From Eubacteriales bacterium (GTDB lineage: Bacteria > Bacillota > Clostridia > Lachnospirales > JAKSVV01), in the NCBI GenBank assembly GCA_031549455.1, contig JAVBPT010000005.1:31993-95992 (forward strand): a stretch of 64,000 nucleotides of DNA, in the 5' to 3' direction. A program made the translations under genes and the position numbers. Under the pieces are notes generated by a model. It did not search any database. It was given only the letters and a program-made list of their open reading frames with translations, and was not told where the DNA came from. This document shows, piece after piece, positions 657-57,445 of the stretch. Within the stretch, counting starts at the first letter, position 1. Every line of letters starts with the position of its first letter.

Positions 657-946
657 AGATGAAAATTGGAATTGCCTGCATTTTTTTATTGCTTTTTGTA
701 ACTTTCATTTATAAGTTTGCGTCTACTCCAAGAGAGGACGTAAAAATTCAGGTGTTCCATTTAAATACAGCGACCAAAGAGGACCTTATGAAGCTAAATG
801 GTGTTGGGAGTGCGATTGCAGATCGGATTCTGACATATAGGGAGACAGCTGGGTTTACAAAAAAAGAGGACATCAAGAAGGTAAAAGGCATTGGTGATAA
901 ATTATATGAAAAAATTAAAAAAAATATAGAAGTGGAGGCAAAATGA
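653..946 (+). CDS. ComEA-like helix-hairpin-helix DNA-binding protein with N-terminal membrane anchor
   Basis: It has a hydrophobic N-terminus and tandem HhH signatures (LMKLNGVGSAIADRIL, IKKVKGIGDKLYEKI). The ATGA overlap with the punA stop suggests coupling. Confidence 0.7.
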   Translation: MKMKIGIACIFLLLFVTFIYKFASTPREDVKIQVFHLNTATKEDLMKLNGVGSAIADRILTYRETAGFTKKEDIKKVKGIGDKLYEKIKKNIEVEAK

Positions 947-1599
947 TAGAGCCAGTAAAAAAAGATGTTGAGCTTAGTTTTATCCCAGATAAAGAAAACG
1001 CCACCATCACACTTGCCCAAAATGGGAACAGTAAGGCGTTTGAGAATCTGGTAAGCGAATACGAAGGATATGTATATAATCTCGCCTACAATTTCTTTAA
1101 CAATACGCTAGATGCTCAGGATGCAACACAAGAAATTTTTGTTAAAGTGTTTAAAAACATAGAAAAGTTTAACTATAAGTCAAAATTTAAAACGTGGCTC
1201 TATAAGATTGCTATTAATACTTGTATTGATGAACTTAGAAAGAAAAAAGAACGTTACTTTGAATATGTGGACATTGAAACTGAAAATGACAAGTTGCAGG
1301 AATTTCCAGATATCCGCGGCAAGTCCCCAGAAGAATTGTTGGAAGAAAAAGAACTGAGGCTTGAGCTCAAAAAGATTATTAAAAATTTACCAATGAAATA
1401 TAGAGTGCCGATTGTTTTGAGAGATATGCAAGGCCTTGCCTATGCGGAAATTGCGGATGCGCTTTCTTTAAATGAGAACACGGTAAAGGTAAGAATCAAC
1501 AGGGGAAGAAGTATGCTTCGGGAAAAACTTACAAAATTGATGAAACAAAATGATAAGCTTCTCAGTCTAATTAGTAAAAAGAAAGAGAGGATGATCTGA
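943..1599 (+). CDS. ECF-type sigma-70 family RNA polymerase sigma factor
   Basis: Region 2 (DAQDATQEIFVKVF, WLYKIAINTCID) and region 4 (LAYAEIADALSLNENTVKVRINRGR) are both present. A GGAGG RBS precedes the start. Confidence 0.85.
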   Translation: MIEPVKKDVELSFIPDKENATITLAQNGNSKAFENLVSEYEGYVYNLAYNFFNNTLDAQDATQEIFVKVFKNIEKFNYKSKFKTWLYKIAINTCIDELRKKKERYFEYVDIETENDKLQEFPDIRGKSPEELLEEKELRLELKKIIKNLPMKYRVPIVLRDMQGLAYAEIADALSLNENTVKVRINRGRSMLREKLTKLMKQNDKLLSLISKKKERMI

Positions 1600-2822
1600 T
1601 GCATTGCGGAAAAATGAAAAAAGTTATGTTTATGTATCTTGAAAAAAGTCTCCCTGAAAAACAGATGAAAAAGATTGAAGATCATTTAAAAACATGTAGT
1701 AAGTGCAAAGAAGCTTATGCTAAGACCGAAAATATGATTAATGTACTAAGGAGTAGCGAACCCAAAGCAGTACCGAAAGATCTGCATAAAAACATTATGA
1801 GAGAGATTGAAAATCTAGATACGGCGAATGATATAAGAAATCAAGAAATCAAGCACAGTTTTCGAAATTTTGCTAGAGGAACCGGGATTGTGATTGCAAC
1901 CTTATTTATCTTCCTACTAGTGATTACCGTATTTGATAAAACGGGAGGGGTTAACCTGCCAGAAATCAATTTCAGCGGGATGCAACAAAACCTTACAAAG
2001 ATGATTTCTCCGTCCACCGCGCAAAATGCAAAAAAGAATGAAGAATTAAGAACGTATGATATGGCAGAAAGTGAAGAGATGGGCATCTCGGGAGTAACAA
2101 GCGATGCCCCAATGAACATTAAAAAGACAGCAGATAAAGAGATTAAACAGGGCAGCAGTAGTATAGAAGTGGTTGACATGGATCAAACTATGACAGAAAT
2201 AGAGACCCTCATTCAAAAGTATAATGCCTATGTGGAATCCAGAAATATTTATGTTTATAGCAATACAGCACAGGGGAGGGATCTAAAAAATGCAAATATG
2301 ACCATTCGGGTTGAACGAGATAAGTTCATGGACTTATCAGCTGAAATCTACAAGCTCGGCAGGGTGACTTCAACCAATGAGACCATCACAAATGTGACCA
2401 AGAGTTACGTTGACATTGAGAACAGAATAGACCTTCTAGAAACCCAACTGGAGTCCTTAAAAGAGGTCCTCAAAAAGGCGACTAAGATGGAAGATATTTT
2501 GCTCATTATGGAAAACATCAATAGTACGACAAATGAGCTTGAGTACTATAAATCACAAAAGGTAAATCTAAATGATCAGGTGGAGTATTCTTACCTCAAT
2601 CTAAACATAGCAGAGGTATTAGACTACAAAGAGATTAGAAAACAAGATGGCACGTTTATTGAGAAAGCAAAACAAAGCCTTGTAATGGCGACCAATAACC
2701 TAGTGCTGAATGTTGAAGAATTTGTATTATGGATCCTGGCAAATATCTTTAATATCACGATTACATTGGTCATTTTATTCGTTCTATTTATAGTTATAAA
2801 ATTGATTTTTAAAAGGAGGTAA
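1599..2822 (+). CDS. Anti-sigma factor: N-terminal zf-HC2 motif, central TM, DUF4349-like coiled-coil domain, C-terminal TM
   Basis: The start overlaps the sigma gene stop. The motif HLKTCSKCKEAY gives H-x3-C-x2-C. Hydrophobic segments lie mid-protein and at the C-terminus. The DUF4349 assignment is from memory of that family's architecture. Confidence 0.65.
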   Translation: MHCGKMKKVMFMYLEKSLPEKQMKKIEDHLKTCSKCKEAYAKTENMINVLRSSEPKAVPKDLHKNIMREIENLDTANDIRNQEIKHSFRNFARGTGIVIATLFIFLLVITVFDKTGGVNLPEINFSGMQQNLTKMISPSTAQNAKKNEELRTYDMAESEEMGISGVTSDAPMNIKKTADKEIKQGSSSIEVVDMDQTMTEIETLIQKYNAYVESRNIYVYSNTAQGRDLKNANMTIRVERDKFMDLSAEIYKLGRVTSTNETITNVTKSYVDIENRIDLLETQLESLKEVLKKATKMEDILLIMENINSTTNELEYYKSQKVNLNDQVEYSYLNLNIAEVLDYKEIRKQDGTFIEKAKQSLVMATNNLVLNVEEFVLWILANIFNITITLVILFVLFIVIKLIFKRR

Positions 2823-2825
2823 GTT

Positions 2826-3581
2826 ATGAATTCTAAAAACAAAATTTTGATTGCACTTTGTGTACTATTTATCTTTAGTCTGGGTGTTTTCGGAACAAGA
2901 TATTTTGAAAGAGGAAGTGTTTCAAAAGCGGAAGAAGTAAACATGGAAAATACGATTACCGTAAATGCTGAGGGGATTTACCGAATCGCACCGGATATCG
3001 CAAATTTAAGTCTTGGGGTGAGCATTGAAAAGACCACAGCAAAGGCAGCGCAAGACGAAGTGACCAGAATTATGAATGCAACCATCGATGAGCTTGGAAA
3101 ACAAGGAATTGATAAAAAGGATATGCAAACCGCTAGCATTAGCATCTATCCAGTATATGATTACAATCCCAACAATGGAAGTAGAACGCTGAAGGGTTAT
3201 AATGTGAGCAATACACTGAATGTCAAGGTAAAAGATCTAACAAAAGTTGGCAATTTGCTTGACATTGCGATTGGAAAAGGTATAAACTCAGATGTGAGCA
3301 TCAACTTTGCATTAGATGATCCAACCAGCGCATATGAAAATGCCTTAAAGCTTGCCACTAAAAGAGGAGAGGCCAAAGCCAAGGTTCTGGCAGACTCGAT
3401 TGGTGTGAAGGTAAATAAACCCTTGATGGTGTCAGAAGGTACGACATCGTATTATGCACCATCCATTCGAAATTACTTAACAAATGGGGCAATGGCAGAA
3501 AGTGATCAAAGCTCTTCTGTACCGATTGAAGCGGGCCAACTTGAGATGAGGGCGCAAGTAACCATGGTTTATAAATATTAA
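2826..3581 (+). CDS. SIMPL/DUF541 family secreted protein
   Basis: It has a signal-like N-terminus, and its size and sequence pattern (ITVNAEG...APDIANLSLGV...EAGQLEMRAQVTMVY) are typical of the SIMPL family. Confidence 0.7.
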   Translation: MNSKNKILIALCVLFIFSLGVFGTRYFERGSVSKAEEVNMENTITVNAEGIYRIAPDIANLSLGVSIEKTTAKAAQDEVTRIMNATIDELGKQGIDKKDMQTASISIYPVYDYNPNNGSRTLKGYNVSNTLNVKVKDLTKVGNLLDIAIGKGINSDVSINFALDDPTSAYENALKLATKRGEAKAKVLADSIGVKVNKPLMVSEGTTSYYAPSIRNYLTNGAMAESDQSSSVPIEAGQLEMRAQVTMVYKY

Positions 3582-3589
3582 AAAAACTA

Positions 3590-3617
3590 TAAAGAAATCT
3601 TAAAGTATTCCGATATA
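3590..3617 (+). promoter_or_regulatory. Sigma-D (sigma-28)-type promoter candidate for flgM
   Basis: TAAA (3590-3593), a 16-nt spacer, then CCGATATA (3610-3617). This matches the TAAA-N15-GCCGATAA class and lies 38 nt upstream of the flgM start. Confidence 0.5.
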
Positions 3618-3655: not shown

Positions 3656-3928
3656 ATGGATGTTAGAAAAGTTGAAGCAGCATACGGTGTAAATCATATT
3701 TCAAAAGCCAATAAAACGGATAATGTAAAGCACGTGACGCCTACCATGGGGAAAGATAAAGTTAGTCTTACAGGAGTGGCAAGCGATTTTAAGCTAGCAT
3801 TGAATGCAGCCAGAGAGGTAAGTGACGTGAGAGAAGATTTAGTAAACGACATCAAGGAAAGAATGGACAATGGAACGTATGAATATGACATGGATGCTCT
3901 TATCGAAAAAATGGTAAGTAAAAAGTAA
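3656..3928 (+). CDS. flgM: Anti-sigma-28 factor FlgM
   Basis: A small protein with the characteristic C-terminal helix region (REDLVNDIKERMDNGTYEYDMDALIEKM). An AAGAGG RBS lies 8 nt before the ATG at 3656, and the track's GTG at 3647 is less likely. Confidence 0.75.
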   Translation: MDVRKVEAAYGVNHISKANKTDNVKHVTPTMGKDKVSLTGVASDFKLALNAAREVSDVREDLVNDIKERMDNGTYEYDMDALIEKMVSKK

Positions 3929-3944
3929 AACAAAACCCTATTAT

Positions 3945-3973
3945 AAAAAAGGACTCACCAAGGTCCTTTTTTG
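3945..3973 (+). terminator. Intrinsic terminator after flgM
   Basis: AAAAAGGAC-loop-GTCCTTTTTT hairpin followed by a T-run. Confidence 0.7.
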
Positions 3974-3985
3974 CATATTTTGCTC

Positions 3986-4014
3986 TTGACAATCATATAA
4001 TAATCGTATACTAT
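3986..4014 (+). promoter_or_regulatory. Sigma-A promoter candidate driving the 4021-4378 unit
   Basis: TTGACA (3986-3991), a 17-nt spacer, then TACTAT (4009-4014). Confidence 0.5.
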
Positions 4015-4020
4015 AGGTAC

Positions 4021-4378
4021 ATATTATTTGACATGATTCGACAAAAACCAACAAAAGGCTCAACGTCGAGTGATGACTGATGATATAATATTATTACAAG
4101 GAGCTGAAAAAGAGTGTACAGCGAAAGGATCAACACGCCGGCACACTACCTTCCGCCAGTCGCAAAATGGCAGGAACCTCAACCCAAGAGGATCAGTATG
4201 AGTAAGGAAGCCGCTATGAAGGATCAACACGTTAAAGCGCGTGGACGCGGTTCCAGAACAAAAGCAGGAACGCCTAGCGAGGCCAAATAATATTATATTC
4301 GATCTTTTCGTCACGGTGAAAAGGTCATAAATTAAAAAAAGAGGAGTGCGCTCTCTACTGAGGGCCCTCCCCTTTTTT
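4021..4378 (+). ncRNA. Candidate stand-alone structured sRNA with two tandem homologous domains, GGA-rich; family not recognised
   Basis: The unit has its own promoter and terminator and is visibly GC-richer than its flanks. A 13-bp perfect long-range inverted repeat pairs 4083-4095 with 4286-4298. Two 94-nt tandem units share AAGGATCAACACG (4125, 4219) and GCAGGAAC (4170, 4264). A hairpin lies at 4301-4326. There are 9 GGA motifs. The alternative reading is a 58-codon GTG ORF at 4114..4290. Confidence 0.45.
4334..4378. terminator. Bidirectional intrinsic terminator shared by the + RNA unit and the - small ORF
   Basis: An imperfect GC-rich stem (GGAGTGCGCTC / GAGGGCCCTCC) is flanked by an A7 run upstream and a T6 run downstream. 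Confidence 0.6.
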
Positions 4379-4381
4379 ATA

Positions 4382-4543
4382 CTAACAACAATGTCTGTGA
4401 TGACGTTTGTGATGTCTATGATGACGTCTGCAACAACAATCCCTTTCGCAGCAGTCATTGTCTCTTCTACAACAGTCGTCTTCTCTTCTAACCCACATGC
4501 ATCTGCATTCATCAAAATCGCATCCATTATTACATCTAAACAT
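4382..4543 (-). CDS. Unannotated 53-aa Cys/His/Arg-rich small protein (MFRCNNGCDFDECRCMWVRREDDCCRRDNDCCERDCCCRRHHRHHKRHHRHCC)
   Basis: A GAGGTGA RBS lies 5 nt upstream of the ATG at 4543. The TAG stop at 4382-4384 abuts the bidirectional terminator. It uses AGA-dominated Arg codons like its neighbours. It is shorter than the ORF-track cutoff. Confidence 0.5.
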   Translation of the reverse strand: MFRCNNGCDFDECRCMWVRREDDCCRRDNDCCERDCCCRRHHRHHKRHHRHCC

Positions 4544-4943: not shown

Positions 4944-5792
4944 ATGGCACCGCAAATTTATTTTCCGAATCTTAATCTGAAGTTTAATGTTGGCAATGTG
5001 GCATTTGAAGTGATGGGCATCAAAGTGTATTATTATGGTCTACTGATCGCGTTCTCAATTCTTCTTGGATACATTTTATTAGAAAATAAGCTCAAGAAGA
5101 GAGGAGAAAAGATAGAGGATTATGTAAACTATATTATTACAGTAATATTCATGTCAATCGTGGGGGCAAGAGCCTATTATGTTCTCTTCTCCTGGGACTA
5201 TTATAGTCAACATAAGCTTCAGATCTTCAATCTTCGAAACGGGGGCATTGCAATCTATGGAGCCATCTTAGCAGCTATTCTTACGACCATTGTATACTGC
5301 AGGATTAAAAAAATCCAATTTCTAAGCTTTGCGGATACGCTGGCACCCTACTTGGTGCTTGGTCAGGCGATCGGAAGATGGGGCAACTTCTTTAATAAAG
5401 AAGCGTTTGGAGGGTACACAGACAACCTAGTTGCCATGGCAATCCGAAGCGATGTTGCGGGATATATGGAACATGTAACGCATGTGCGGTACTTTGATCA
5501 AGATTACATACAGGTGCATCCAACCTTTTTGTATGAATCCATCGCCTGCTTCTTGATATTTGCACTTCTTGTAAACTGCAAACAAAAAATGGATGGTCAG
5601 GTTGTACTCAGTTATCTATTCTTTTATTCGCTGGCTCGGTTTTTTATTGAGGGATTAAGAGTAGACCAATTACAAGTACAACATTATCCGATTTCACAAA
5701 TTGTGGCTATTTTATTAATGCTGATTAGTTCAACTTTATACCTATGGGAAAGGAGGAAAGCATGGAAAAAGAAAGAAGAAACCAAATCCTAG
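4944..5792 (+). CDS. lgt: Prolipoprotein diacylglyceryl transferase
   Basis: It contains the GRWGNFFNKEAFG signature and is a multi-TM protein. An AGGAG RBS favours the ATG at 4944 over the GTG at 4938. Confidence 0.9.
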   Translation: MAPQIYFPNLNLKFNVGNVAFEVMGIKVYYYGLLIAFSILLGYILLENKLKKRGEKIEDYVNYIITVIFMSIVGARAYYVLFSWDYYSQHKLQIFNLRNGGIAIYGAILAAILTTIVYCRIKKIQFLSFADTLAPYLVLGQAIGRWGNFFNKEAFGGYTDNLVAMAIRSDVAGYMEHVTHVRYFDQDYIQVHPTFLYESIACFLIFALLVNCKQKMDGQVVLSYLFFYSLARFFIEGLRVDQLQVQHYPISQIVAILLMLISSTLYLWERRKAWKKKEETKS

Positions 5793-5929
5793 AAATGCAA
5801 GAAATGAAGAAACAACTTAACTGTATGGTGGTAGAAAATAAAGACTATCAAGAAATCTACGACATCAGTGTAAAGCTAGATCAACTGATTATGGCATACT
5901 ATGACAAAAAGCTTAAAAAAACAGTATGA
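5762..5929 (+). CDS. Spo0E-like sporulation regulatory aspartyl-phosphate phosphatase
   Basis: A ~55-aa helical protein with the pattern IxxLRxxL...SxxLDxLI (ILEMQEMKKQL...SVKLDQLIMAYY). An AGGAGG RBS precedes the ATG at 5762, and the gene overlaps the lgt 3' end. Confidence 0.6.
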   Translation: MEKERRNQILEMQEMKKQLNCMVVENKDYQEIYDISVKLDQLIMAYYDKKLKKTV

Positions 5930-9359: not shown

Positions 9360-9463
9360 CTTTCTATTTGATCATTCTTTGTCAATACCAAATGAGGTTT
9401 TACATAAAGGACTAGCATTTTTTTCCAAACTCTGATATAATGATGGCAGATTGGAGTCTTTGC

Positions 9464-25293: not shown

Positions 25294-26715
25294 ATGGAAG
25301 TGAAGCTATTGTCCTGTACAAACCATGCAAGTAAAATTGTGGCCACCGCAGCCAAAATAGCGGTGACACCGGGAAAAGCAATTGAAATTTTTGATTCAAT
25401 AAAAGAGGATAAAAAAGCAGATGAGGTGGTAGAGCGGGTTCTGGGATATGGACATATGTCGATCTCGGAACATGTCTCTTTTAACTTTGGCATTCAAGAT
25501 GTGTCCCTCGTTGTAGAGACTTTTTTAATCAGCCACCGACTTGCTTCTTACACCATTCGCTCGGGAAGATATACCAGCTTTGATGACGACAATCTTTTTG
25601 TACCGGAGTTTCGATTTAATAGTTATGTGGATGATGATACGAAGGTAAAAGCCAAGGAGCTCTATAAAGATTTTGCAAAGCACGCATTTTCTGAGTACAA
25701 CTATTTTTTAGAAAAAGGAATTAAACCTGAGGATGCACGATTCTGTTTACCTTATGGCGTGAAAACCAATATCTATTTTACCGTGAATGCAAGAGAACTT
25801 ATTCATGTAATCAGTGCTGCTTTACACGGAAGGGGAAAGCGTAACGCGGAAATTGTGAAGCTGGGAGAAAGATTGCTTAAGCTTGGAAAAGAGGTACTAC
25901 CAACTGTCTTTAAGGACGTTGAACGGTATGAGCTTGGACAAGAAGAAAAGGTAGACAGATTAAACGAGATCTTTACAAGACATGAGATGCAGGACGTTGA
26001 AAGGCAAACACGAGCAATCGTCGAGTTGATTGATTACGAAGAAGATGCGGAAAGAAAGGTGGGCGTTCTTGCGCTAATTAATCAGTTTAACTGTGACACA
26101 GCATATGCTCAAATGAGAGCTAATGATACCGATATATTGAAAGAAATATTAGAGATTGTGTGCAACGATAAAAGGAAAAGAGAACTTGAACAAATTAGTT
26201 ATACCTTTAGAATGAACAATCTTACTTTACCGATTTTAAAACATATTATGAGACACCGAATGCAATCGATTCTAATTCCATCTTTTGTGCAAGTGGGGAA
26301 GAGCAAAACCTATTCCACGCCACCGTCTATGGAAGAGAATGACCAGAGTGAAGAAATTATAGAAAGATATAAAAAAGTACACGAAATGGGGAGAGAACTC
26401 TATGAAAAACTGGAAGCAATGGATGTCCGAAAAGAGGATCTAGCCTATACATATTTAATGGGAGATGAAGTGTGTGATGTGGTCACAACCATGAATGCAA
26501 GAGAACTTTATCATTTTCTATCGCTTAGAACCTGTACCAGGGCACAATGGGCAATTCGAGACATCGCGCTTTCGATGCTCAAAAAACTAAAGGAAGTGGC
26601 ACCTTATATCTTCTCACTTGCAGGACCAAATTGCTATTCAAAAGGAAAATGTACTGAGGGAAAAATGTCATGTAAACAGATGGACGAGGTTGCAAAACAA
26701 ATTAAGGAATTATAG
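25294..26715 (+). CDS. thyX: Tandem-duplicated ThyX-like flavin-dependent thymidylate synthase
   Basis: Half 1 reads GHMSISEHVSFNF...SHRLASYTIRSGRY...FTVNAREL. Half 2 reads ISYTFRM...RHRMQS...TTMNARELYHFLSLR..RAQWAIRDIA. Confidence 0.65.
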   Translation: MEVKLLSCTNHASKIVATAAKIAVTPGKAIEIFDSIKEDKKADEVVERVLGYGHMSISEHVSFNFGIQDVSLVVETFLISHRLASYTIRSGRYTSFDDDNLFVPEFRFNSYVDDDTKVKAKELYKDFAKHAFSEYNYFLEKGIKPEDARFCLPYGVKTNIYFTVNARELIHVISAALHGRGKRNAEIVKLGERLLKLGKEVLPTVFKDVERYELGQEEKVDRLNEIFTRHEMQDVERQTRAIVELIDYEEDAERKVGVLALINQFNCDTAYAQMRANDTDILKEILEIVCNDKRKRELEQISYTFRMNNLTLPILKHIMRHRMQSILIPSFVQVGKSKTYSTPPSMEENDQSEEIIERYKKVHEMGRELYEKLEAMDVRKEDLAYTYLMGDEVCDVVTTMNARELYHFLSLRTCTRAQWAIRDIALSMLKKLKEVAPYIFSLAGPNCYSKGKCTEGKMSCKQMDEVAKQIKEL

Positions 26716-27068
26716 TATAGTAGTATAAAAAACCTGATATAATTGCTTATCTATAGGTTTTACCTGTCCATCCAAATAAATAGGGAAGGCTTATCAAGCG
26801 ATGAAAAAAGATTTCCAAAGATAGAATATATAAAAATTATGGGGAGTTTGAGGGAAAAGAGAAAATGTAGCATAAATGATAATTAAAAAAAACATAGCTT
26901 TTAAATGTAAACTAATCTTGCTAAAGGCTTTTCGTATATCATATTTCCCAACTCATAGATAGCATCATCCGAGAATGGTTGTAATATTTAAAACTTATAA
27001 AATACTTCGATCTTTCATTATATACACTTAGATATTATAAACGTTTTTATTTTCAATATTTATTGCAC

Positions 27069-27092
27069 AAAAAAGAGGGCTCCCTCTTTTTT
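27069..27092. terminator. Bidirectional hairpin terminator in ORF-poor region
   Basis: AAAAAGAGGG-CTC-CCCTCTTTTTT hairpin. Confidence 0.6.
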
Positions 27093-27249
27093 GCTTTAGG
27101 AGACTCCCTCTTTAAAATTACTTACTATTTAGGTTCTAGATTATAGTCAATAAAAATAGAGACATTATCGATGCTATCTAAGACTTTTTGTACCCAGATC
27201 ACCGTTTTCTTGTTGCTGCGTTGAGTTCATATCTGATGGTAAACTCCTG

Positions 27250-27423
27250 CTATTGGAATTGAACAAAGTGAAGGATTATCCATACTACAATGCATATTGC
27301 AGAAATGATGAGACAATGACGAAAATCTCTGTCGTAGGGACCCCAGATATTCCAATAGTATAATGCTTTGACAAGAAAGATAAGTCCCGCAACGATCGCT
27401 GCCAAGTAAATAGTAAATAACAT
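27250..27423 (-). CDS. Unannotated 57-aa two-TM small membrane protein (MLFTIYLAAIVAGLIFLVKALYYWNIWGPYDRDFRHCLIISAICIVVWIILHFVQFQ)
   Basis: A GAGGAGGG RBS lies 7 nt before the ATG at 27423, and there are two hydrophobic helices. It is below the ORF-track cutoff. Confidence 0.55.
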   Translation of the reverse strand: MLFTIYLAAIVAGLIFLVKALYYWNIWGPYDRDFRHCLIISAICIVVWIILHFVQFQ

Positions 27424-27953
27424 AATAATTCCCTCCTCTTATTTTTCAAGGTGTTTTATTTATAGTAAACTATCAAAAGATAGATAAAAAAGGGAAGAAA
27501 TTCAAAAAATGTATTAAAAACTATACATTACCATATATTTTACCATTTTTCAACTTTTTACACGATAAATAGCCTGACTTTTTTCTTGACACAATAAAAC
27601 CAAGCATACATCATTTTTTGTCATTCAAATCGAATTATCATTGTTTTACATTATGGTCGATTATACTAGAAATCAAGCCATTTTAAATTAGATGTTATTT
27701 ATCCCAATTTTCTAAGTTTCAATGCGCGAAAGGAGAATTGTACTGTTTAATAATACGAATAGAATGTAAAAGATAAGAAAATGGGCGTGAGCATAAGAGT
27801 AATAGGATTCGTATTCAATGGAATAAAAAATTTCTAATGAGGTAAAGCAAGAATATTGCGAACAAAGCAAACATGTTGCAAATTTATCTTTAAAATTGCA
27901 TCTGGTTTGACGGATTATCGCGTTAAAATATCCTAGACATTGCTAGGATATGA

Positions 27954-28148
27954 TTATCTATAGTATTCCGTGTGCTTCTCATTAATCGCATCAAAATCAT
28001 TAAATACATTTGTTTGATCTTCACCTATCTCAAACATAAATGAGTTCGGTTCAACCTCTTCACTAAAACCAATATTTTCCTTTGAAAATCGATACGCCTT
28101 ATTGTTTGGCGGTGTACTGTAACTACTATTTCCTGTAAAAGTTTTCAT
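27954..28148 (-). CDS. 64-aa hydrophilic small protein, unknown function
   Basis: A GGAGGTG RBS lies 6 nt before the ATG, and a hairpin (TATCCTAG-loop-CTAGGATA) follows the stop. Confidence 0.55.
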   Translation of the reverse strand: MKTFTGNSSYSTPPNNKAYRFSKENIGFSEEVEPNSFMFEIGEDQTNVFNDFDAINEKHTEYYR

Positions 28149-28321
28149 AACAACACCTCCAAATATTCTGCACGTTTGTGCAATTTTAGTATATGCAAAA
28201 TGTGTTCAAGTATTCACGATCCACATAGCAATTATTGGCAATAAAATTTTACAAAAAAGTACATACAAAAACAAAAAAATATGTTAAAATTATATTAGAT
28301 ATAGATATCGAAAGGAATAGT

Positions 28322-31300
28322 ATGAAAAAGATAATCTCGAGTTTATTATTGATTATATATAGTTTAACCATTCTGCTGACCTTTTATGTAAAAGATGTGG
28401 CGGCGGCAGGGGAACCATTTAGATGGGTGAGAGGATATGCACTGGATAACAACCTTTCAAGAACAACGCAGGTTGCAAACGACGAGGCTTTGCTAGAGTG
28501 GGATGTAACCGATGCGGGAGTGTATACGTTTTCTTTTTATACAGAAAATGAGAGAAAGAATGTGTTGACCTTTACCAAAACCCTAAATACACTGGATGTA
28601 AAATATCAAATTTTCAGATGGGATGGGACTGATTTTACCATCGATGTAACACAAAGTTACATTCAAGCAGAATATAAAGATTGGGATTTTGCGTCCCAAA
28701 CACTAATTACGCCAACCGTTGTGCCAACAGAGGTGGTCTTCCATATTGATTCTGTGGACTCACAAAGGGGACGAATTTTTAAAATCGAAAATCAATACAT
28801 CAAGTTCTTTTGGAGTGTCTCAGATTCAACAATAAATGTAAATTTTAAGGGACTTAAGAAAAACACAGTCCATCCTTTTGAGCTTAGCAGTCCAGGCGGA
28901 AGCACCCAAAAGATAAATGTATTAAAAAATCTGAGTTTTGATGTATCACCCACACACTACATCAACGTGTCTGGAAGTGTGGTCAACCTTGAGACGATTG
29001 ACCATGAGCTTCACCCGAATGAAAATGCGGGGCAAAAGCCGGGGATCAAGATCGAAATTTCAAGACCCATCGCCTATAATTCAGTGACAGCAAAATTTGA
29101 TGGTTATATCCCACTGATGGATGAGGCACTTATCAATCTATCCATCAACCTTCAGGAAAAGGTGGAAAATCTGGGCGTAAATCCTGCAAACTTTTCTATC
29201 TACAAAAAGCTTTCCGAGCTTACGAAGGCTTCTAGTGGGGATAAATATTACATTGATGTTGTGAAATCAAATGATGGTTTGGTGCCGTCAAACCAATATA
29301 CGGTTTGGTCAGCTTTAAAAGAGTCAACAATCTATGACCCAACCTCTCTGATTCTTTCCAACGTGGCCACAGAGAAGTATGACTTTGACGTGAGGTACAT
29401 TGTGACCAACGGAATAGGAGCAGGGTATACTTATCTTTCCTATGATATTGCCAGAAAAAGCATCACGGATACCTATGCAGTGATTGACACCTATAATGGG
29501 CCTGGAATTTACACCATCTATGTGGCGGAAGCAGCGATCACAAACCCTTCCTCTCCTCAGCTTGCCAAATGGGCTGAACAGAGGGTAGAAGAAGGGAGCG
29601 GAAAAATTTATATTCCACTCAGCGTGGTTCGAAATGAATTGATGCCCAATAAATATTACACATTTAAGGTAGAATATCGGTTAAATGATACCACGGCCAC
29701 AGTTGCATCTCAACTTCGAATCTACGATGCAAACGCTGACCATAAGGTAACGGTTTCTGTGCCCAAAATAGTCAGCATACAAGATTTAATTGTTATCCCG
29801 AAGGAGAACACGCTCAATGATGCTAAGGTTGCACGCTTTAACCTGGTTTTCGAGATGCCGGATAAAGTGATGGAGCTTCTTAGCACAAACAACAAACAAA
29901 TTTGGTATGAATTTTGTATGAATACATTGAATCGGAACCATACGGATAGTCAGGATCCAAGCAAAAATCAGAAATATCAGATTGCTCAATCCATTTATTT
30001 GAAGAAAAATGGAAGCCAGATTGAACTTAGAATGAATGATCCAAACAATCCAGAGTTTAAAATTGTAGATATTGATAAACCAATCAGCTGTGAAATCGTT
30101 CTAAAAGGGTTAAATCAAAACTGGATTTCCTTTAAGGTACCAGATTGGTCTGGAAGCGGAGGGGATTTAACCAAACCGGTTTCCGGAAGCGTTGGGAAAT
30201 ATATACCGGGGAATAGTACGCTTTATGAAAACGACTTTTTTAATCCCAACAAGGCAAAGATTCCGGCAAGTTATTTTGTTACTTTAAGAGCGCTTTATGA
30301 TGAGGATCTAATGAGTACGACCAATGAGATCACCATGAGCGAGTATGCCATTCCAATCAGTATTGCTCTTTCGGAAACGCAAGAGATACTGAAGGCACCA
30401 ATCGATGTAAAGAGCCCGAATAAAGGAATAGATTTTATTGAAACACGGTTTACAGATGTGGAGATCACAGAGTATAAAAGAAAGATGCTTGATTCAATTC
30501 AGGCGGATCTAGACAAGAAGGAATATGAAGTCTTTTTGAGTGCTTCTCAAGGGGATCTACAAAGGGTTTTATCAAATAGCCTGATTGTAAATAAGAAAAA
30601 CATCGAGCAAGCAGCAAGCAGCATTTACAATTTCAAACACCTTGGAAGCATTGGGAATTCGATTTCAATTCACCCTTCAAGCAGTAATGTTAGCCCGACG
30701 ATAACAGAGATTCGAAATGGAGCGGTGATCGCTTTTAGAATAAGTGCAGCGGATTTCATGCTCTTAAATTTGGATGCCAATCAAAACTACTATATGGCGG
30801 TTCGAACGAGTCTTGATGTGGTGGTGGACAACAACGAAGATGGTGTGAATGAAACCACTGTGAATCGATATTCTGAAATTACAAATATTTCCTCCGTTCG
30901 AACAGGGACTGAGATTGTCATACCAGGAGAAGAAGACAAAATCCCTGGGGCACCACAAAATTTTGGAATGGAAGAGGAAGCCACTGATCGATATATTCAT
31001 ATCAGATGGGAAGAGCCAGAGTATGATTCTAGTTTAAGACCAACTGAGATTTTGGGATATGAAATCATTCGGGTTGCGGACAATCGACTTGAGACCGCAG
31101 ATCGAAGCAACAAGTTAAGCATTGCGGATCTATATGCGATTGATCAATACAAAGACAAGGAGGCTTTTAGGATAATTGAGGGAGTGATGCAAAAATGGAA
31201 TCAGACCTCAAAAATTTGGGAAGTGATAGCAGGGGACCTGGATATTTATGAATATGTGCCGAATGGAAACTATATGAGATTAAAAGACTTTAACATCAAT

Positions 31301-33163
31301 ACCAACCGAATTTATTATTACTATATTCGAACGGTAAGATATGACACGGTACTAGGACATACAGAGATTGCAAAATCGATGTGGGCGGAGTTGACCTCCA
31401 CCACAAAACCCGTACAAGGTGTTAAAAATTTAAAACAAGTCTTTACAGGATATGCTTACAACGATTTATACGAAGTGGTTGTTTCATTTGAATCACCAAT
31501 CATCGATTCAAGTAGAATACCAAGCGAGTTTGAACATGTGATTGCGGTAAGGAGTCAAGATAGCGCGGTCTATTCAGAAAACGGATATAAAGTGACACTA
31601 CTTGCTGTTAAGGATGAAGGAAAATCAGACTACAGAACCTATGTGTATAAGATTGGTGGATTATTATCTGGGAAGAAATATTATGTGAAAGCGGCAATAC
31701 TGGATAAGACCACAACAGAAGAGGGCAATGTTTATGCCAAATCGGCGTATACACCATATATTGAGCTCAGGACCACCTTTTCACAAGAGGATTATGATAA
31801 AGAAAACAAGTACGCCGATTATTCAAGATATTATGATACCAAGACATTGGAACTCATTAACGTACCCGCTTTTGTGGTTGAGGATAGCGCCTCTAGCTAT
31901 GAGCTAAAGTATATCGAGGAGAAGTTTACAGGACTCATCAATGCAACTAAAACCAGCTATTTTGATCTGCCGGTTAAGAAGGATGTGGCGAGTCTCACCT
32001 ATTTTATTTCTCAGAAAAATATACAAGACCTTCAGAATAAAAAAATGTCATTAAGGATTGTGCGGGATAACCTAACCCTCATCATTCCATACGAGTGGCT
32101 GGATTCTGAGTTAACAGAAGCATGGGTAAATATGAAAAAGTCTATGAAAGATCGAAATAAAGGGGTGAGTGATTTTTATGTTAGACTAAGCCTTACTTTC
32201 AATGATAAAGCCACCACCATTAATGGTGCCAAGAAATTGGGGGCGGAAGTTGAAACGCAAATCGAACTGATCGAACAAAATCGTTATAACGTCGAAATTG
32301 ATTATATGATTGAGGAACGATTAAAGGATAAGATTAAATCCGAAAAATCAACCTTCCTTTATGAACTGGACAGACAGTTAAAAGGAGAGATCAACGACAA
32401 TCGATTCTTAGAAATAATGGATGATACAATGGAAGATTTGGCGGAAAAGTTACAAATCATTGTCGCCAAAGAATTGCCAAAGTATGAAGAGGATTCGGAG
32501 AGCGTGGTGGAGACGTATAAACCGATTAACATGAAATATACCGGAGAAGCCACTGCTAATATTGTGGCCTACAACACGAAAACAAGAAGCTGGTATACCA
32601 TTCAACAAGAAAAATCCATGGGAAATATCAATGGGTATATGAGCAAATTGGAACGCTTTGCACTCACAAGTGTAAACGATTTTACCCTTATTTATGGAAC
32701 AGAGGAGGAGAAGGCTGCTGCTGAGGTAAAGGCAAAATATAACCTGGATGCGGTACTTCGAGCCAATGGGGTTTATGACCTGAGTGGGACGGTGACACAA
32801 AAATTGATGAAGGAGATCGTGTATGTGATTATTGCAAAAAGGGCAAGTAGTATCAATGAGGAAATCAATCTGAGAAAGCAGATTGATGCACGGTTTAGCT
32901 TCCTGAATCAAACGTTAACAAATCAGGAGATCATCTATACCATTATGCAAACTTACAATATGTTCACTAGCATTGACATCAATAACCTCATCATCAAGGA
33001 TCAGAGTGTGATTGTGGGAATAACGGGTATTCAAAACTACTATAAACAAAGCATTTTGGCTTCGGTCGAGTTGGGAATGCTTACAAAGAATGACATCAAG
33101 GAGCCCAATAAACAACTTAGTGTGGGTACAACGTTAAGACTCATAAGAGATATCATAAAATAG
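28322..33163 (+). CDS. Giant (~1613 aa) secreted beta-rich protein with fibronectin-III-like modules; no canonical anchor recognised
   Basis: It has a signal peptide (MKKIISSLLLIIYSLTILLTFYVKDVAAA). FN3-like segments occur (PGAPQNF...RWEEPEYDS...ILGYEIIRV...YYYYIRTV and VQGVKNLK...YYVKAAILD). The track's TTG start at 28235 is unlikely. Confidence 0.7.
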   Translation: MKKIISSLLLIIYSLTILLTFYVKDVAAAGEPFRWVRGYALDNNLSRTTQVANDEALLEWDVTDAGVYTFSFYTENERKNVLTFTKTLNTLDVKYQIFRWDGTDFTIDVTQSYIQAEYKDWDFASQTLITPTVVPTEVVFHIDSVDSQRGRIFKIENQYIKFFWSVSDSTINVNFKGLKKNTVHPFELSSPGGSTQKINVLKNLSFDVSPTHYINVSGSVVNLETIDHELHPNENAGQKPGIKIEISRPIAYNSVTAKFDGYIPLMDEALINLSINLQEKVENLGVNPANFSIYKKLSELTKASSGDKYYIDVVKSNDGLVPSNQYTVWSALKESTIYDPTSLILSNVATEKYDFDVRYIVTNGIGAGYTYLSYDIARKSITDTYAVIDTYNGPGIYTIYVAEAAITNPSSPQLAKWAEQRVEEGSGKIYIPLSVVRNELMPNKYYTFKVEYRLNDTTATVASQLRIYDANADHKVTVSVPKIVSIQDLIVIPKENTLNDAKVARFNLVFEMPDKVMELLSTNNKQIWYEFCMNTLNRNHTDSQDPSKNQKYQIAQSIYLKKNGSQIELRMNDPNNPEFKIVDIDKPISCEIVLKGLNQNWISFKVPDWSGSGGDLTKPVSGSVGKYIPGNSTLYENDFFNPNKAKIPASYFVTLRALYDEDLMSTTNEITMSEYAIPISIALSETQEILKAPIDVKSPNKGIDFIETRFTDVEITEYKRKMLDSIQADLDKKEYEVFLSASQGDLQRVLSNSLIVNKKNIEQAASSIYNFKHLGSIGNSISIHPSSSNVSPTITEIRNGAVIAFRISAADFMLLNLDANQNYYMAVRTSLDVVVDNNEDGVNETTVNRYSEITNISSVRTGTEIVIPGEEDKIPGAPQNFGMEEEATDRYIHIRWEEPEYDSSLRPTEILGYEIIRVADNRLETADRSNKLSIADLYAIDQYKDKEAFRIIEGVMQKWNQTSKIWEVIAGDLDIYEYVPNGNYMRLKDFNINTNRIYYYYIRTVRYDTVLGHTEIAKSMWAELTSTTKPVQGVKNLKQVFTGYAYNDLYEVVVSFESPIIDSSRIPSEFEHVIAVRSQDSAVYSENGYKVTLLAVKDEGKSDYRTYVYKIGGLLSGKKYYVKAAILDKTTTEEGNVYAKSAYTPYIELRTTFSQEDYDKENKYADYSRYYDTKTLELINVPAFVVEDSASSYELKYIEEKFTGLINATKTSYFDLPVKKDVASLTYFISQKNIQDLQNKKMSLRIVRDNLTLIIPYEWLDSELTEAWVNMKKSMKDRNKGVSDFYVRLSLTFNDKATTINGAKKLGAEVETQIELIEQNRYNVEIDYMIEERLKDKIKSEKSTFLYELDRQLKGEINDNRFLEIMDDTMEDLAEKLQIIVAKELPKYEEDSESVVETYKPINMKYTGEATANIVAYNTKTRSWYTIQQEKSMGNINGYMSKLERFALTSVNDFTLIYGTEEEKAAAEVKAKYNLDAVLRANGVYDLSGTVTQKLMKEIVYVIIAKRASSINEEINLRKQIDARFSFLNQTLTNQEIIYTIMQTYNMFTSIDINNLIIKDQSVIVGITGIQNYYKQSILASVELGMLTKNDIKEPNKQLSVGTTLRLIRDIIK

Positions 33164-51411: not shown

Positions 51412-51469
51412 TTGGAATTATAATCTAGCCTTTTGCATATTTTGTAATAAAGAAATGCAAGAGGTTTTT

Positions 51470-52621
51470 ATGTATAATAGAGTTTTGGTTGTCTTTAAAA
51501 ACAAAGAGAGCAAAAATACGAATCTGGCAGGATATGCCAAGGTCATGGAGCTAAACGATCAGGTGATGTTGGAGATTTTTCTACAAGAGGGCGGCAATAT
51601 GGAGAACGTGTATGATTTAAACATAATCTACCAAGAAAACCGGCAAAAAATCAAAAGGCAGATCTGTAAAATTGCTGTAAAAAATAAAGGAGAATGGACA
51701 AAAGACATTACGGATTTAAAAATCCATTTTAAGGATATAAAAGCGCTTTTGATCTCTTCCAATAAAGGAAACATGCTCGTGGGGTATATAGGTGAGGAGT
51801 TTGATCATAAAAAGGATGTACTGGAATATAGGGAGGAGCGGCCGGTTGAGCAAAAAGGAGGACGGATGATGCAGCAAGCACCGGCATCCATAAAGGGAGG
51901 CAAAAAAGAGGATAAAGGTGAGTACGAAGATCTCAATACCATGGATCCATCCAATCATGTCACAATTATCACCAATGGAAAAGAGAAGGAATCACCTTAT
52001 CAGAAGGATAGAGTGGACAGCACAGAGTATAAAGAAATGATTTATGAAAATGGTGTCTATGAGAAAGAGATCGTGAATATAGAACCGGCAAGTAAGATTA
52101 TAGAGGATAACGATCATAAGGATGGATACTATATGATGTATAAAGGAATTTGTCCTCCCGATAGATTGACAGCAGTATCCAGCGTAAATGTAGTGGCTTC
52201 TTCGGGCAACCAAAAAAGAAGACGCATGAGAAGACGGATCGTCAACCCATACACATTTCCTAGGGCGGGAGAGGTGTATGATAGTTATAAAGATAAATTT
52301 TACTCAGATCTAGGGATCCCTTATCAATTATTACCTAGAGAAGATGATGAAAAAAAAGAAATCATTTCTTTAAGTGGTTATCAAAAAGTAGAAAAGGATT
52401 CACCACTATATGATAAATACTTTCCGAAAGAGGAAGAACATCCAAAATCCAAAAGACAAAGGCGACATGAGCGCGGAAAAAAGGAGAGAAAGGATGAGAT
52501 CTTACCGGATGAGCCTACATATGAAAAGGACTTAGAAAATGAGATTGCACATTTTAAAATACAAGAAGAAGAACCCAAAAAGCGTGAGCGTCATGAGAAA
52601 AAAAGACGTTCCAAACATTAG
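51470..52621 (+). CDS. Hypothetical Lys/Glu/Arg-rich protein
   Basis: It is a long ORF whose C-terminal two-thirds are low-complexity and charged (KRRRMRRR, KSKRQRRHERGKKERK, KKRERHEKKRRSKH). No family was recognised. Confidence 0.45.
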   Translation: MYNRVLVVFKNKESKNTNLAGYAKVMELNDQVMLEIFLQEGGNMENVYDLNIIYQENRQKIKRQICKIAVKNKGEWTKDITDLKIHFKDIKALLISSNKGNMLVGYIGEEFDHKKDVLEYREERPVEQKGGRMMQQAPASIKGGKKEDKGEYEDLNTMDPSNHVTIITNGKEKESPYQKDRVDSTEYKEMIYENGVYEKEIVNIEPASKIIEDNDHKDGYYMMYKGICPPDRLTAVSSVNVVASSGNQKRRRMRRRIVNPYTFPRAGEVYDSYKDKFYSDLGIPYQLLPREDDEKKEIISLSGYQKVEKDSPLYDKYFPKEEEHPKSKRQRRHERGKKERKDEILPDEPTYEKDLENEIAHFKIQEEEPKKRERHEKKRRSKH

Positions 52622-55834: not shown

Positions 55835-57445
55835 TCAACCTGTTTTTACCTTGCTCGTGTAACGTTTTTGTTTAAACCAGGAATTGGCCTCATCCATCAC
55901 CACATTCTTATTATGGGCGATGATCAGAACCTTATCCTCATGAAGCCTTCTGACTTCATCCGCGGTGATCAACTCCCGCCTTTGTTCAGACACGGACTTT
56001 GACTCTCCGTTTTCCTGTTTGGTTACACTTTCAGATTTAATAGTAGTAAATCCGGAAAGTTGAGAAACATATTCTGCAGACGTTCCAGTCAGACCTGAGT
56101 AAAAAACTTTTGCCTTTAGATTATTTAGTATATTGTGAGCGGTTTCCTCGCCATAATTTGCCTTTAATTGCTCCATCCCTTGTATACCAATAGATACGCC
56201 GAGCTTTCTGCTACGTGCGGTGGCCACAATACTTGCAAAGTTAGGAAGGGTACCGATATTCGCAAACTCATCTAGCATAAAAAGTACGGGTGTATAGTCA
56301 TTGCCCTCTGCAAAGTCCATACATTTGTTTAGCAATTGAGAGTAGAATACAGACATAAGCGGCATAGCAAAGAGCGATTTTCTTTCAGGCACACATACAA
56401 AGAGTGCAGTGGGCCTATCCCGTAGAACCTTTGGGTGAAACAACTTGTTAAACTGAGGTGTAAAAATTTCTTTCCCATCTTCTATTTTCTTAGAAAAAGG
56501 GGTCTCAACGAAGGTCTTAATTTTTTCATCATTGAATAGTTTCAGCGCATTGGCTAGTGTCACCTTGATACTTGACATGGTTTTGGTTGCCTCTTTGGAT
56601 TGAGCAAACATCATAAATTCTTGGTGGGCAGCCGGAACCTCTGAAAAGATTTTATCGAGCTGCTCAATATTTTTATAGAGAATAATTTTCATGGCTTCCG
56701 GAATATCTTTTTTGAGTCCTTTGTGTTTAACAAAGATGAAAGAGGCTACAAGAAGAGGTTCAGACATGGACAACCATTCTGTGTTTCCACTATGTCCACC
56801 CGTTCCAATTTCATAACTCTTATTTCCATTAATCATCACGAGTTGGGCAATCTCTTTTAATTCTGTGTCATCTCCTGCGATTAAAAGAGGATTATACCGG
56901 ATCGTTGCATTAAAAGGATCTAACTTCATAACGTTATAACCCAGATTAATTAAATATTGTTTTGTAAGATCATGCATTTCGCTTTTAGGATCACTTACAA
57001 CAACCGATGTTTTCCCGTTGAGTTCGAGTAGATTTGGAATAAAGAAACTTGTGGATTTTCCACATCCAGTCGGACCCACGATGGCCACGTGTTCAAAACT
57101 TCGTTTAAGGGAAAGTCGTACATTTTTGGATAAAACAAAACCATCTGTTCCGGTTAAATCTTTAAGGTCGTTGATGGTTCCCATATAAGAAGTTCCCTGT
57201 TCTTTTACCTTAGAGCCACCCTTTTCAAGGATGTTTAGGTAATAGTAGAGGGCACCAATAATGGTTGCAATCGCAAAAAAGCCCTGAATGCCAGACCTTG
57301 TCGCATTGGTAAGGGTAATTGAAAAAGAAGATCCAGAAATGAGATTGATAAGAGGGATAAAGATCCAAGCAAGGATATAAGGTGAAAAAAGTATAAAAAT
57401 AATGATCGATACGATTATTAATGCAATCTTATTTAGTTTACTCAT
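55835..57445 (-). CDS. VirD4/TraG-type type IV coupling protein (T4CP) ATPase
   Basis: It has N-terminal TM segments, Walker A VGPTGCGKST, Walker B VLFMLDEFANIG and the motif SIGIQGMEQL. Confidence 0.8.
   Translation of the reverse strand: MSKLNKIALIIVSIIIFILFSPYILAWIFIPLINLISGSSFSITLTNATRSGIQGFFAIATIIGALYYYLNILEKGGSKVKEQGTSYMGTINDLKDLTGTDGFVLSKNVRLSLKRSFEHVAIVGPTGCGKSTSFFIPNLLELNGKTSVVVSDPKSEMHDLTKQYLINLGYNVMKLDPFNATIRYNPLLIAGDDTELKEIAQLVMINGNKSYEIGTGGHSGNTEWLSMSEPLLVASFIFVKHKGLKKDIPEAMKIILYKNIEQLDKIFSEVPAAHQEFMMFAQSKEATKTMSSIKVTLANALKLFNDEKIKTFVETPFSKKIEDGKEIFTPQFNKLFHPKVLRDRPTALFVCVPERKSLFAMPLMSVFYSQLLNKCMDFAEGNDYTPVLFMLDEFANIGTLPNFASIVATARSRKLGVSIGIQGMEQLKANYGEETAHNILNNLKAKVFYSGLTGTSAEYVSQLSGFTTIKSESVTKQENGESKSVSEQRRELITADEVRRLHEDKVLIIAHNKNVVMDEANSWFKQKRYTSKVKTG

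Follow-up and report, generated by a model that had tools for sequence, protein, structure and literature searches.

A 64-kb stretch of DNA from a Eubacteriales bacterium (contig JAVBPT010000005.1; hereafter the window, 64,000 nucleotides (nt) at its full length, in whose numbering all positions are given) carries, downstream of flgM, an array of seven AGGA sequences resembling Shine-Dalgarno (SD) elements, within which lies a duplicated bipartite nucleotide motif that is the most robust non-random property of the locus. Judged from its sequence, the segment 3986-4378 appears to be a real, coherent and self-contained small transcription unit of the + strand, restricted to its lineage, with transcription itself being predicted. 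The best reading of this unit, offered tentatively and at less than even confidence, is that it specifies a decoy or dual-function RNA, likewise lineage-restricted, that displays SD-like AGGA sites; messenger RNA (mRNA) for an orphan small protein is a close rival and nearly as likely. The sequence elements and their non-randomness are matters of direct observation, and the repeats provide the clearest instance.

The bipartite motif consists of block A, AAGGATCAACACG, at 4125..4137 and again at 4219..4231 (+), and block B, GCAGGAAC, which follows block A after 32 nt and occupies 4170..4177 and 4264..4271 (+). The repeat finder recovered both pairs at the common offset of 94 nt that a preliminary description of this DNA had given for them, and a 13-mer and an 8-mer repeated at one shared offset arose in none of the 20,000 shuffles of 4083-4298. 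Outside both blocks, identity at offset 94 amounts to 31/104 positions (30%), which is the chance level, and the 32-nt spacers between blocks A and B match at 8 of their 32 positions. Thus, of the two tandem 94-nt units previously proposed, the pair of blocks at exact spacing stands, while the units as wholes are not repeated. Because 94 is not a multiple of three, the copies fall in different reading frames, and this, together with the equal length and random sequence of the spacers, indicates selection on nucleic-acid motifs and their spacing; the earlier proposal that the repeat acts at the nucleic-acid level is thereby upheld, with perfect blocks set amid unrelated spacers of equal length. 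A third AGGATCA at 4189..4195 (+), a partial copy of block A, doubles as an SD-like element for the ATG at 4198 and brings this heptamer to the three occurrences claimed for it. In terms of the RNA, the core at 4096-4285 is GC-rich and U-poor and contains the module AAGGAUCAACACG-N32-GCAGGAAC in two exact copies plus the third AGGAUCA.

The core is bracketed by a perfect 13-nt inverted repeat, with its left arm at 4083..4095 and its right arm at 4286..4298, which the repeat finder likewise located exactly where it had been described. Both arms are AT-only, are separated by 190 bp, and each contain a 10-bp palindrome, on account of which the pair is also a direct repeat. The palindrome ATAATATTAT, contained in both arms, is present 3 times in 64 kb where 0.32 copies would be expected, two of them flanking the candidate core. 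Single 13-nt repeats within 400 nt are not rare in the window, where six inverted and three direct independent cases were counted.

The second non-random feature is the array of AGGA motifs. Nine GGA triplets begin at 4100, 4127, 4173, 4190, 4206, 4221, 4243, 4267 and 4343. The chance expectation of 2-3 triplets quoted in the preliminary description proved too low: local composition predicts 4.5 for 4100-4269, where 8 are observed (P = 0.048, a marginal enrichment), and six sites, not the seven stated, fit the pattern [ACG][AG]GGA[AU]. For the tetramer AGGA the excess is real, with 7 observed in the core versus 1.7 expected (P = 8e-4), and the array of SD- or CsrA-type motifs is genuine. Across 128 kb, i.e., both strands of the window, just one other locus holds at least 7 AGGA per 172 nt; it lies at 51688-51909 (+), inside an open reading frame (ORF) at 51455-52621 that encodes 388 amino acids and has no Pfam match. 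The heptamers of the candidate comprise AAGGAUC three times (one as GAGGAUC), CAGGAAC twice and AAGGAAG once, and the seven AGGA motifs are spaced 15-46 nt apart. Six consecutive GGA triplets stand 15-24 nt apart, a spacing that was chosen post hoc and is in part another expression of the repeat.

These motifs are embedded in an arrangement typical of a stand-alone unit, as had been suggested, with its own promoter(s) and an intrinsic terminator. The promoter scan and repeat finder placed the promoter P1, TTGACA-17-TACTAT, at 3986..4014 (+; 10/12 consensus matches, predicted start at about 4021) and the intrinsic terminator at 4335..4378, both as previously reported. A second putative promoter, P2, is an extended -10 element, TGATATAAT, at 4081..4089 (+), with a predicted start at about 4096; it overlaps the left arm of the inverted repeat. 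Both candidate promoters are of the sigma-A type, not the sigma-28 type, and matches to the sporulation promoters of sigma-G and sigma-K were unconvincing by eye. The motif TGATATAAT occurs 10 times in the window versus 4.6 expected; its copies at 9433, 16160, 19540 and 37414 sit 22-31 nt before gene starts, and the copy at 4081 is 25 nt before the GTG at 4114. Leaders in this genome would hence be very short, given that TGNTATAAT extended -10 boxes lie 22-31 nt before several gene starts. The terminator comprises an inverted repeat (4335-4353/4360-4378) followed by a T-run and preceded by an A-run, and it is common to the candidate and to a convergent ORF on the - strand at 4382-4543. A 10-bp stem-loop at 4301..4326 (+) appears in the predicted structures between the stop codon of the 58-codon ORF discussed below and the terminator. 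The core is GC-richer than its flanks, in agreement with the preliminary description (52-53% GC in 4100-4250 versus 26-32%), and also exceeds its neighbouring genes (about 36-45%); of the 10 intergenic regions it has the highest GC content, and among all 150-nt windows in the 64 kb it ranks in the top 0.5%.

The upstream gene was correctly identified as flgM: the 90-amino-acid product of 3656..3928 (+; ATG at 3656) matches Pfam PF04316 with E = 3e-12. It belongs to a separate unit, since it has both a promoter match of its own, of the sigma-D/sigma-28 type (TAAA-N16-CCGATA, 3590-3615, +), and its own intrinsic terminator at 3944..3973, which has a 12-pair stem then a T-run, with an A-run before the stem. 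This terminator, to judge by these runs, could act in both directions and thereby isolate the candidate unit from flgM. A TAAA...GTCGATAT element similar to the flgM promoter match lies upstream of the single FlgM relative found (locus L005). In the window flgM is solitary and not part of a flagellar operon, directly following genes for an extracytoplasmic function (ECF) sigma factor, a putative anti-sigma protein with DUF4349, and a SIMPL (DUF541) protein (943-3581).

In the decoy scenario, P1 and P2 would both feed the unit, and termination at 4335-4378 would yield RNAs of about 360 and 285 nt. The RNA itself is proposed as the working product: it would present a set of equivalent, single-stranded SD-like sites to some factor whose normal targets are the SD regions of mRNAs. 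The obvious candidate partner would be a CsrA-type protein, with a C/U-rich base-pairing small RNA (sRNA) or the 30S subunit as possible alternatives; we infer both the identity of such a partner and any effect on motility. Translation from AAGGAG-N10-GUG would also be possible, giving a dual-function RNA. A search by RNAduplex against the translation-initiation regions of window genes returned implausibly long, uninformative duplexes and was discarded.

Folding predictions bear on how such sites would be presented. The full 360-nt transcript folds better than its shuffles (z = -3.6), which is owed to the terminator, the A-U inverted repeats, and the stem-loops at 4301-4326 and at the 5' end. 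The latter stem-loop, predicted for the P1 transcript at 4032..4075 (+), pairs AUUCGAC with GUCGAGU and is present in both the minimum free energy (MFE) and centroid structures. In the full-length MFE structure the 3' arm of the inverted repeat pairs with 4021-4030, not with 4083-4095. About 4-5 of the 8 core GGA triplets have a predicted unpaired probability above 0.5, and about half of the AGGA sites are predicted to be unpaired, including, for the most part, the AAGGAG motif at 4098..4103 (+), the first AGGA of the array. At most two triplets lie in predicted hairpin loops (that at 4127, and marginally that at 4221, with a 3-bp stem), while those at 4173 and 4190 are predicted to be fully paired and that at 4206 mostly paired.

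Several observations weigh against a decoy RNA. In the protein-sponge RNAs known so far, the binding sites usually lie within hairpin loops, and the core at 4100-4285 is no better folded than its shuffles (z = -0.15 for the + strand, -0.51 for the - strand), its ensembles being diffuse. RNAalifold applied to the two 94-nt units gave -1 kcal/mol and five scattered pairs, i.e., no common fold. The tandem structured domains of the preliminary description are therefore not borne out by either the core z of -0.15 or the RNAalifold energy of -1 kcal/mol. Taken by itself, the density of GGA is unremarkable, both for coding DNA of this genome, where three ordinary genes of the window likewise contain 8 GGA in an evenly spaced cluster, and for Firmicute mRNAs, that of ahrC, an ordinary mRNA of B. 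subtilis, having 11 GGA in 483 nt (PMC6546359). Neither csrA nor fliW was found in the 64-kb window by regular expressions and tblastn with hand-typed probe sequences. The unit also has features of a gene. Its AAGGAG lies at a well-placed SD distance from a start codon (AAGGAG-N10-GTG 4114) whose frame fills the GC-rich core, 25 nt after the TGNTATAAT box, and the three-periodicity of this ORF exceeds that of 92.5% of random ORFs of the same composition. Conservation is likewise wanting: nothing in the 64-kb window reached the gathering threshold of any Rfam 15 family, blastn for a DNA homologue of the candidate against plasmids and phages was empty, a viral scan for the pattern AAGGATCAACACG-N28-36-GCAGGAAC gave no match, and no such element lies upstream of lgt in the loci of six relatives.

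The searches for relatives converge on a restricted distribution. A permissive Rfam scan (E up to 10) of 3900-4450 gave six sub-threshold chance matches, none of them to Csr/Rsm or SR1; among this noise were a 24-bit match to a small nucleolar RNA and an SR6-antitoxin match of 15.7 bits versus a gathering threshold of 55. Neither the window-wide nor the permissive search thus gave the confident match to a known Rfam family that would have told against the earlier proposal. A single metagenome match to AAGGATCAACACG-N28-36-GCAGGAAC lies inside a 363-amino-acid ORF on a GC-rich contig and was dismissed as chance. FlgM has a single relative, at 66% identity, with a different downstream gene and neighbours. 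The nearest relatives of Lgt show 50-55% identity (L006-L008, L010-L013; the closest being 55%), and their loci keep the downstream order of Spo0E-like, folD, M18 peptidase and mscL genes. Comparison of the candidate by blastn with all fetched relative loci gave noise only, a scan of genome contigs with the SIMPL neighbour gave only distant matches of 24-33% identity and did not recover even the source genome, and no close relative of the host was found among the GTDB species representatives scanned. A second public assembly (L001), of the same strain, does not differ from the window at this locus. Taken together, the searches suggest that the host lineage is deeply isolated and that the element is confined to this single, poorly sampled Clostridia-like lineage.

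Among the closest known systems are the CsrA/RsmA-sequestering sRNAs CsrB/CsrC and RsmX/Y/Z of Proteobacteria, which the candidate resembles in being a stand-alone unit of similar length with its own promoter and intrinsic terminator, and in its array of [A/C]AGGA[U/A][C/G] heptamers at 15-24 nt spacing. The CsrB repeats CAGGA(U/A/C)G resemble the candidate heptamers, distances of 15-24 nt are within the span that one CsrA dimer can bridge, and AAGGAU fits the ARGGAU core of the CsrA consensus obtained by systematic evolution of ligands by exponential enrichment (SELEX). In the excess of GGA that marks Csr/Rsm RNAs, the core, with 8 GGA and 7 AGGA in 170 nt, stands at the low end of the range of about 7-22. 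The differences are several: CsrB/CsrC have 13-22 sites as opposed to the 7-8 of the candidate (PMC6546359), whose core, unlike the Csr/Rsm RNAs, is not stably folded, with no more than two sites in predicted loops and three mostly paired. Further, the candidate has no match to the Rfam Csr/Rsm models, and its Clostridia-like host belongs to the Firmicutes, in which the protein FliW is the known antagonist of CsrA. In the literature searched, FliW and not an sRNA is described in this role (PMC6546359; bioRxiv 10.1101/2020.07.02.184341), so that a CsrA sponge in a Firmicute would be novel. The specific proposal of a CsrB-like sponge in a Clostridia-like Firmicute, namely an independently transcribed, largely unstructured RNA of about 285-360 nt whose seven AGGA and duplicated AAGGAUCAACACG-N32-GCAGGAAC would titrate CsrA or another SD-reading protein, is neither supported nor refuted by these observations and appears unlikely.

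The window also contains a flagellin gene at 57958-59703 (-; 581 amino acids, with Flagellin_N and Flagellin_C and a long central region), which stands apart from other flagellar genes, is not adjacent to fliW-csrA, and adjoins a type IV secretion coupling-protein-like ATPase (T4SS-DNA_transf/TraG-D_C, 55835-57445, -). Its leader contains only the SD, with no upstream A(N)GGA site, and has no sigma-28 consensus.

Closer to home for a Firmicute is SR1 of B. subtilis, which encodes SR1P and binds CsrA; the candidate is comparable to it in being a small independent transcript with an SD-led short ORF and single-stranded GGA, the kind of site at which CsrA binds SR1 (PMC6546359). The two differ in that SR1 has three GGA motifs and base-pairs with ahrC mRNA, whereas no complementary target was found for the candidate in the window, and it has no sequence similarity to SR1 and no match to the Rfam SR1 model. 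A sponge of the RosA type offers another parallel. In B. subtilis, RosA acts on the C-rich sRNAs RoxS and FsrA by titration, and the repeated purine/G-rich SD-like motifs of the candidate could in a similar way pair with C/U-rich seeds; however, a cognate C/U-rich sRNA is neither known nor to be seen in the window, and the candidate is not homologous to RosA.

The principal rival to the decoy RNA, an orphan small-protein gene, is possible and is given a probability somewhat short of a third. Here P2 or P1 would give rise to an mRNA with a short leader, translated from the GTG at 4114 (58 amino acids) or from AAGAGGA-N5-ATG 4198 (30 amino acids) into a basic, Pro/Ala/Lys/Arg-rich, disordered peptide, and the AGGA motifs and repeats would be incidental or cis-regulatory on the mRNA. 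The 58-codon ORF runs from GTG to TAA (4288-4290) at 4114..4290 (+), with in-frame internal starts at ATG 4198 and ATG 4216, and all the signals expected of a small ORF are present, namely promoter, SD, start, open frame, stop and terminator. Its SD is strong, the AAGGAG of 4098..4103 lying 10 nt before the GTG; both in-frame ATGs also have SD-like motifs 5-6 nt upstream (AAGAGGA before ATG 4198 and AAGGAA before ATG 4216); and the ORF ends 10 nt before the stem-loop that precedes the terminator. The 25-nt distance from the extended -10 TGATATAAT to the start, as at four other genes of the window, is what keeps this reading alive, and the ORF appears among the genes called by public pipelines (P0001; NCBI and Logan). 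Under a three-periodic composition model its frame is favoured by 0.121 per codon, as compared with 0.172 +/- 0.08 for real genes (23rd percentile) and 0.015 +/- 0.074 for random ORFs of the same composition (P = 0.075), with the signal arising only from 4198-4287. Other measures run counter to coding. GC content across codon positions 1/2/3 is flat (0.55/0.52/0.53) as against 0.47/0.32/0.40 in the genes of the window, and the codon score, once corrected for composition, sits at the median for 285 spurious ORFs, below 99.5% of real gene segments. The log-likelihood ratio of native usage versus local composition for synonymous codons is -3.0, where native usage would give +4.7 +/- 3 (P = 0.006) and local composition -4.7 +/- 3 (P = 0.28), so that synonymous codon choice follows local composition more closely than native usage. 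Shuffling this T-poor sequence also yields an open frame of at least 58 codons in 20% of cases. For the peptide there is no homologue in about 15 billion proteins: a word-indexed search found only itself in 5.8 billion clusters, exhaustive phmmer found nothing in 1.84 billion representatives, and Pfam, NCBIfam, PDB and tblastn against plasmids and phages gave no match. AlphaFold2 predicts it to be essentially disordered (predicted local distance difference test score 67, predicted template-modelling score 0.16). In its promoter, strong SD, ORF of fewer than 100 codons, terminator, lack of homologues and predicted disorder, the candidate resembles the orphan small proteins of Gram-positive bacteria (reviewed in PMC10730256); it differs in its non-native codon choice, and a peptide leaves unexplained the out-of-frame perfect 13- and 8-nt blocks and the four-fold excess of AGGA. 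That the ORF is translated into a functional peptide may thus be credited with roughly a third of the probability, and a dual function is possible.

The remaining explanations would have neither an RNA of the + strand nor its peptide as the working product. Among them, a non-functional relic, whether a fragment of acquired DNA or a decayed duplication caught between two terminators, with promoter-, SD- and ORF-like features that are fortuitous in AT-rich flanks, is unlikely. It would account for an element that is entirely unconserved, that has neither structure nor a native codon signal, and that is missing beside lgt or flgM in the nearest available relatives, but two blocks kept perfectly at exact spacing amid randomised sequence imply selection, and the arrangement of promoter(s), SD, stem-loop and terminator is a coherent one. 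An RNA of the - strand is distinctly improbable. It would start from TTCACC-17-TATAAT (4320-4292) and run for about 340 nt through the core to the flgM terminator (3973-3944), exposing eight UCC/anti-SD-like motifs (UGAUCCUU three times) as an antisense partner or as an SD-binding riboregulator of the RsaE/RoxS type. Its promoter matches the consensus as well as P1 does (10/12), with the right arm of the inverted repeat, which overlaps the TAA stop, supplying the TATAAT box in the same ATATAATATTATT context as P2; the flgM terminator, with an A-run and a T-run on both sides, looks bidirectional; and a long hairpin, which the centroid structure retains, has UGUUGAUCCUUU in its 12-nt loop. However, TATAAT-like boxes are frequent in AT-rich DNA, this one has no TG extension and a weak -35, the core folds no better than shuffles on this strand (z = -0.51), the + strand is here the purine/A-rich, mRNA-like one, and no complementary target was found in the window. 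Least probable of all is an element acting at the DNA level, in which the two near-perfect palindromes ATATAATATTAT, separated by 203 bp, would serve as paired operators or mark the inverted-repeat ends of an invertible or mobile segment of 216 bp, and in which proteins would bind blocks A and B, about 42.5 and 94 bp apart (about 4 and 9 helical turns), on a single face of the helix. The strong over-representation of the palindrome, its position bracketing the core, the perfect 13/13 inverted repeat, the foreign look of the core GC content and the block spacing near integral helical turns all accord with it. On the other side, the annotated ORFs yielded neither a recombinase nor a transposase, the window has no second copy and the called ORF no paralogue, and the orientation is the same in two independent assemblies (the NCBI-derived window and the Logan contig L001); moreover, the helical-phase argument was made after seeing the data, and the use of the arms as -10 boxes is a simpler explanation.

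A type I toxin-antitoxin pair was rejected, as both small ORFs are hydrophilic (one a basic product of 58 amino acids, the other a Cys/His/Arg/Asp-rich product of 53) and overlap only in the shared terminator. Retron non-coding RNA, type III antitoxin repeats and TnpB/IscB guide RNA were likewise set aside, there being no adjacent reverse transcriptase, toxin or nuclease gene.

The convergent 53-codon ORF at 4382-4543 (-) has a strong SD, AGAGGTGAT, and encodes a very Cys/His/Arg/Asp-rich peptide, MFRCNNGCDFDECRC...HHRHHKRHHRHCC, with 13 Cys and 8 His; short tandem GTCTGTGATGAC-like DNA repeats occupy 4391-4430. The peptide has no Pfam or NCBIfam match, and its exact sequence is absent from the 15-billion-protein collection; a micro-protein of the metal-binding or spore-coat type is one possibility. 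Further downstream, a 61-amino-acid ORF at 5744-5929 (+) overlaps the 3' end of lgt, and two relatives, L006 (2785-2946) and L010 (942-1085), have a small ORF just after lgt with a weak Spo0E-like Pfam match; if the 61-amino-acid ORF were Spo0E-like, this would suggest an endospore-forming lineage. Elsewhere in the window, a 473-amino-acid ThyX-like protein (25294-26715, +) has two matched Thy1 stretches, so that the flavin-dependent thymidylate synthase domain appears to be duplicated or fused in it. The TGNTATAAT copy at 26735 (+) opens a 1.5-kb stretch without a long ORF (26716-28234), ahead of an ORF of 1,642 amino acids (28235-33163, +), which has an N-terminal hydrophobic segment and no Pfam domain at E <= 1e-5, and whose product may be a large secreted or surface protein. 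ARAGORN found no transfer RNA or transfer-messenger RNA genes in the 64 kb.

For now, with the element confined to one poorly sampled lineage, its general significance is limited. Should the locus prove to be a small ORF, it would add one more orphan micro-protein. If instead the RNA is a decoy, it would provide a Firmicute example of an SD-mimic or CsrA-type sponge; in the latter event an RNA antagonist of CsrA would be added to FliW, the protein antagonist of this phylum, and the use of Csr-type sRNAs by Gram-positive bacteria would become a directly testable question.

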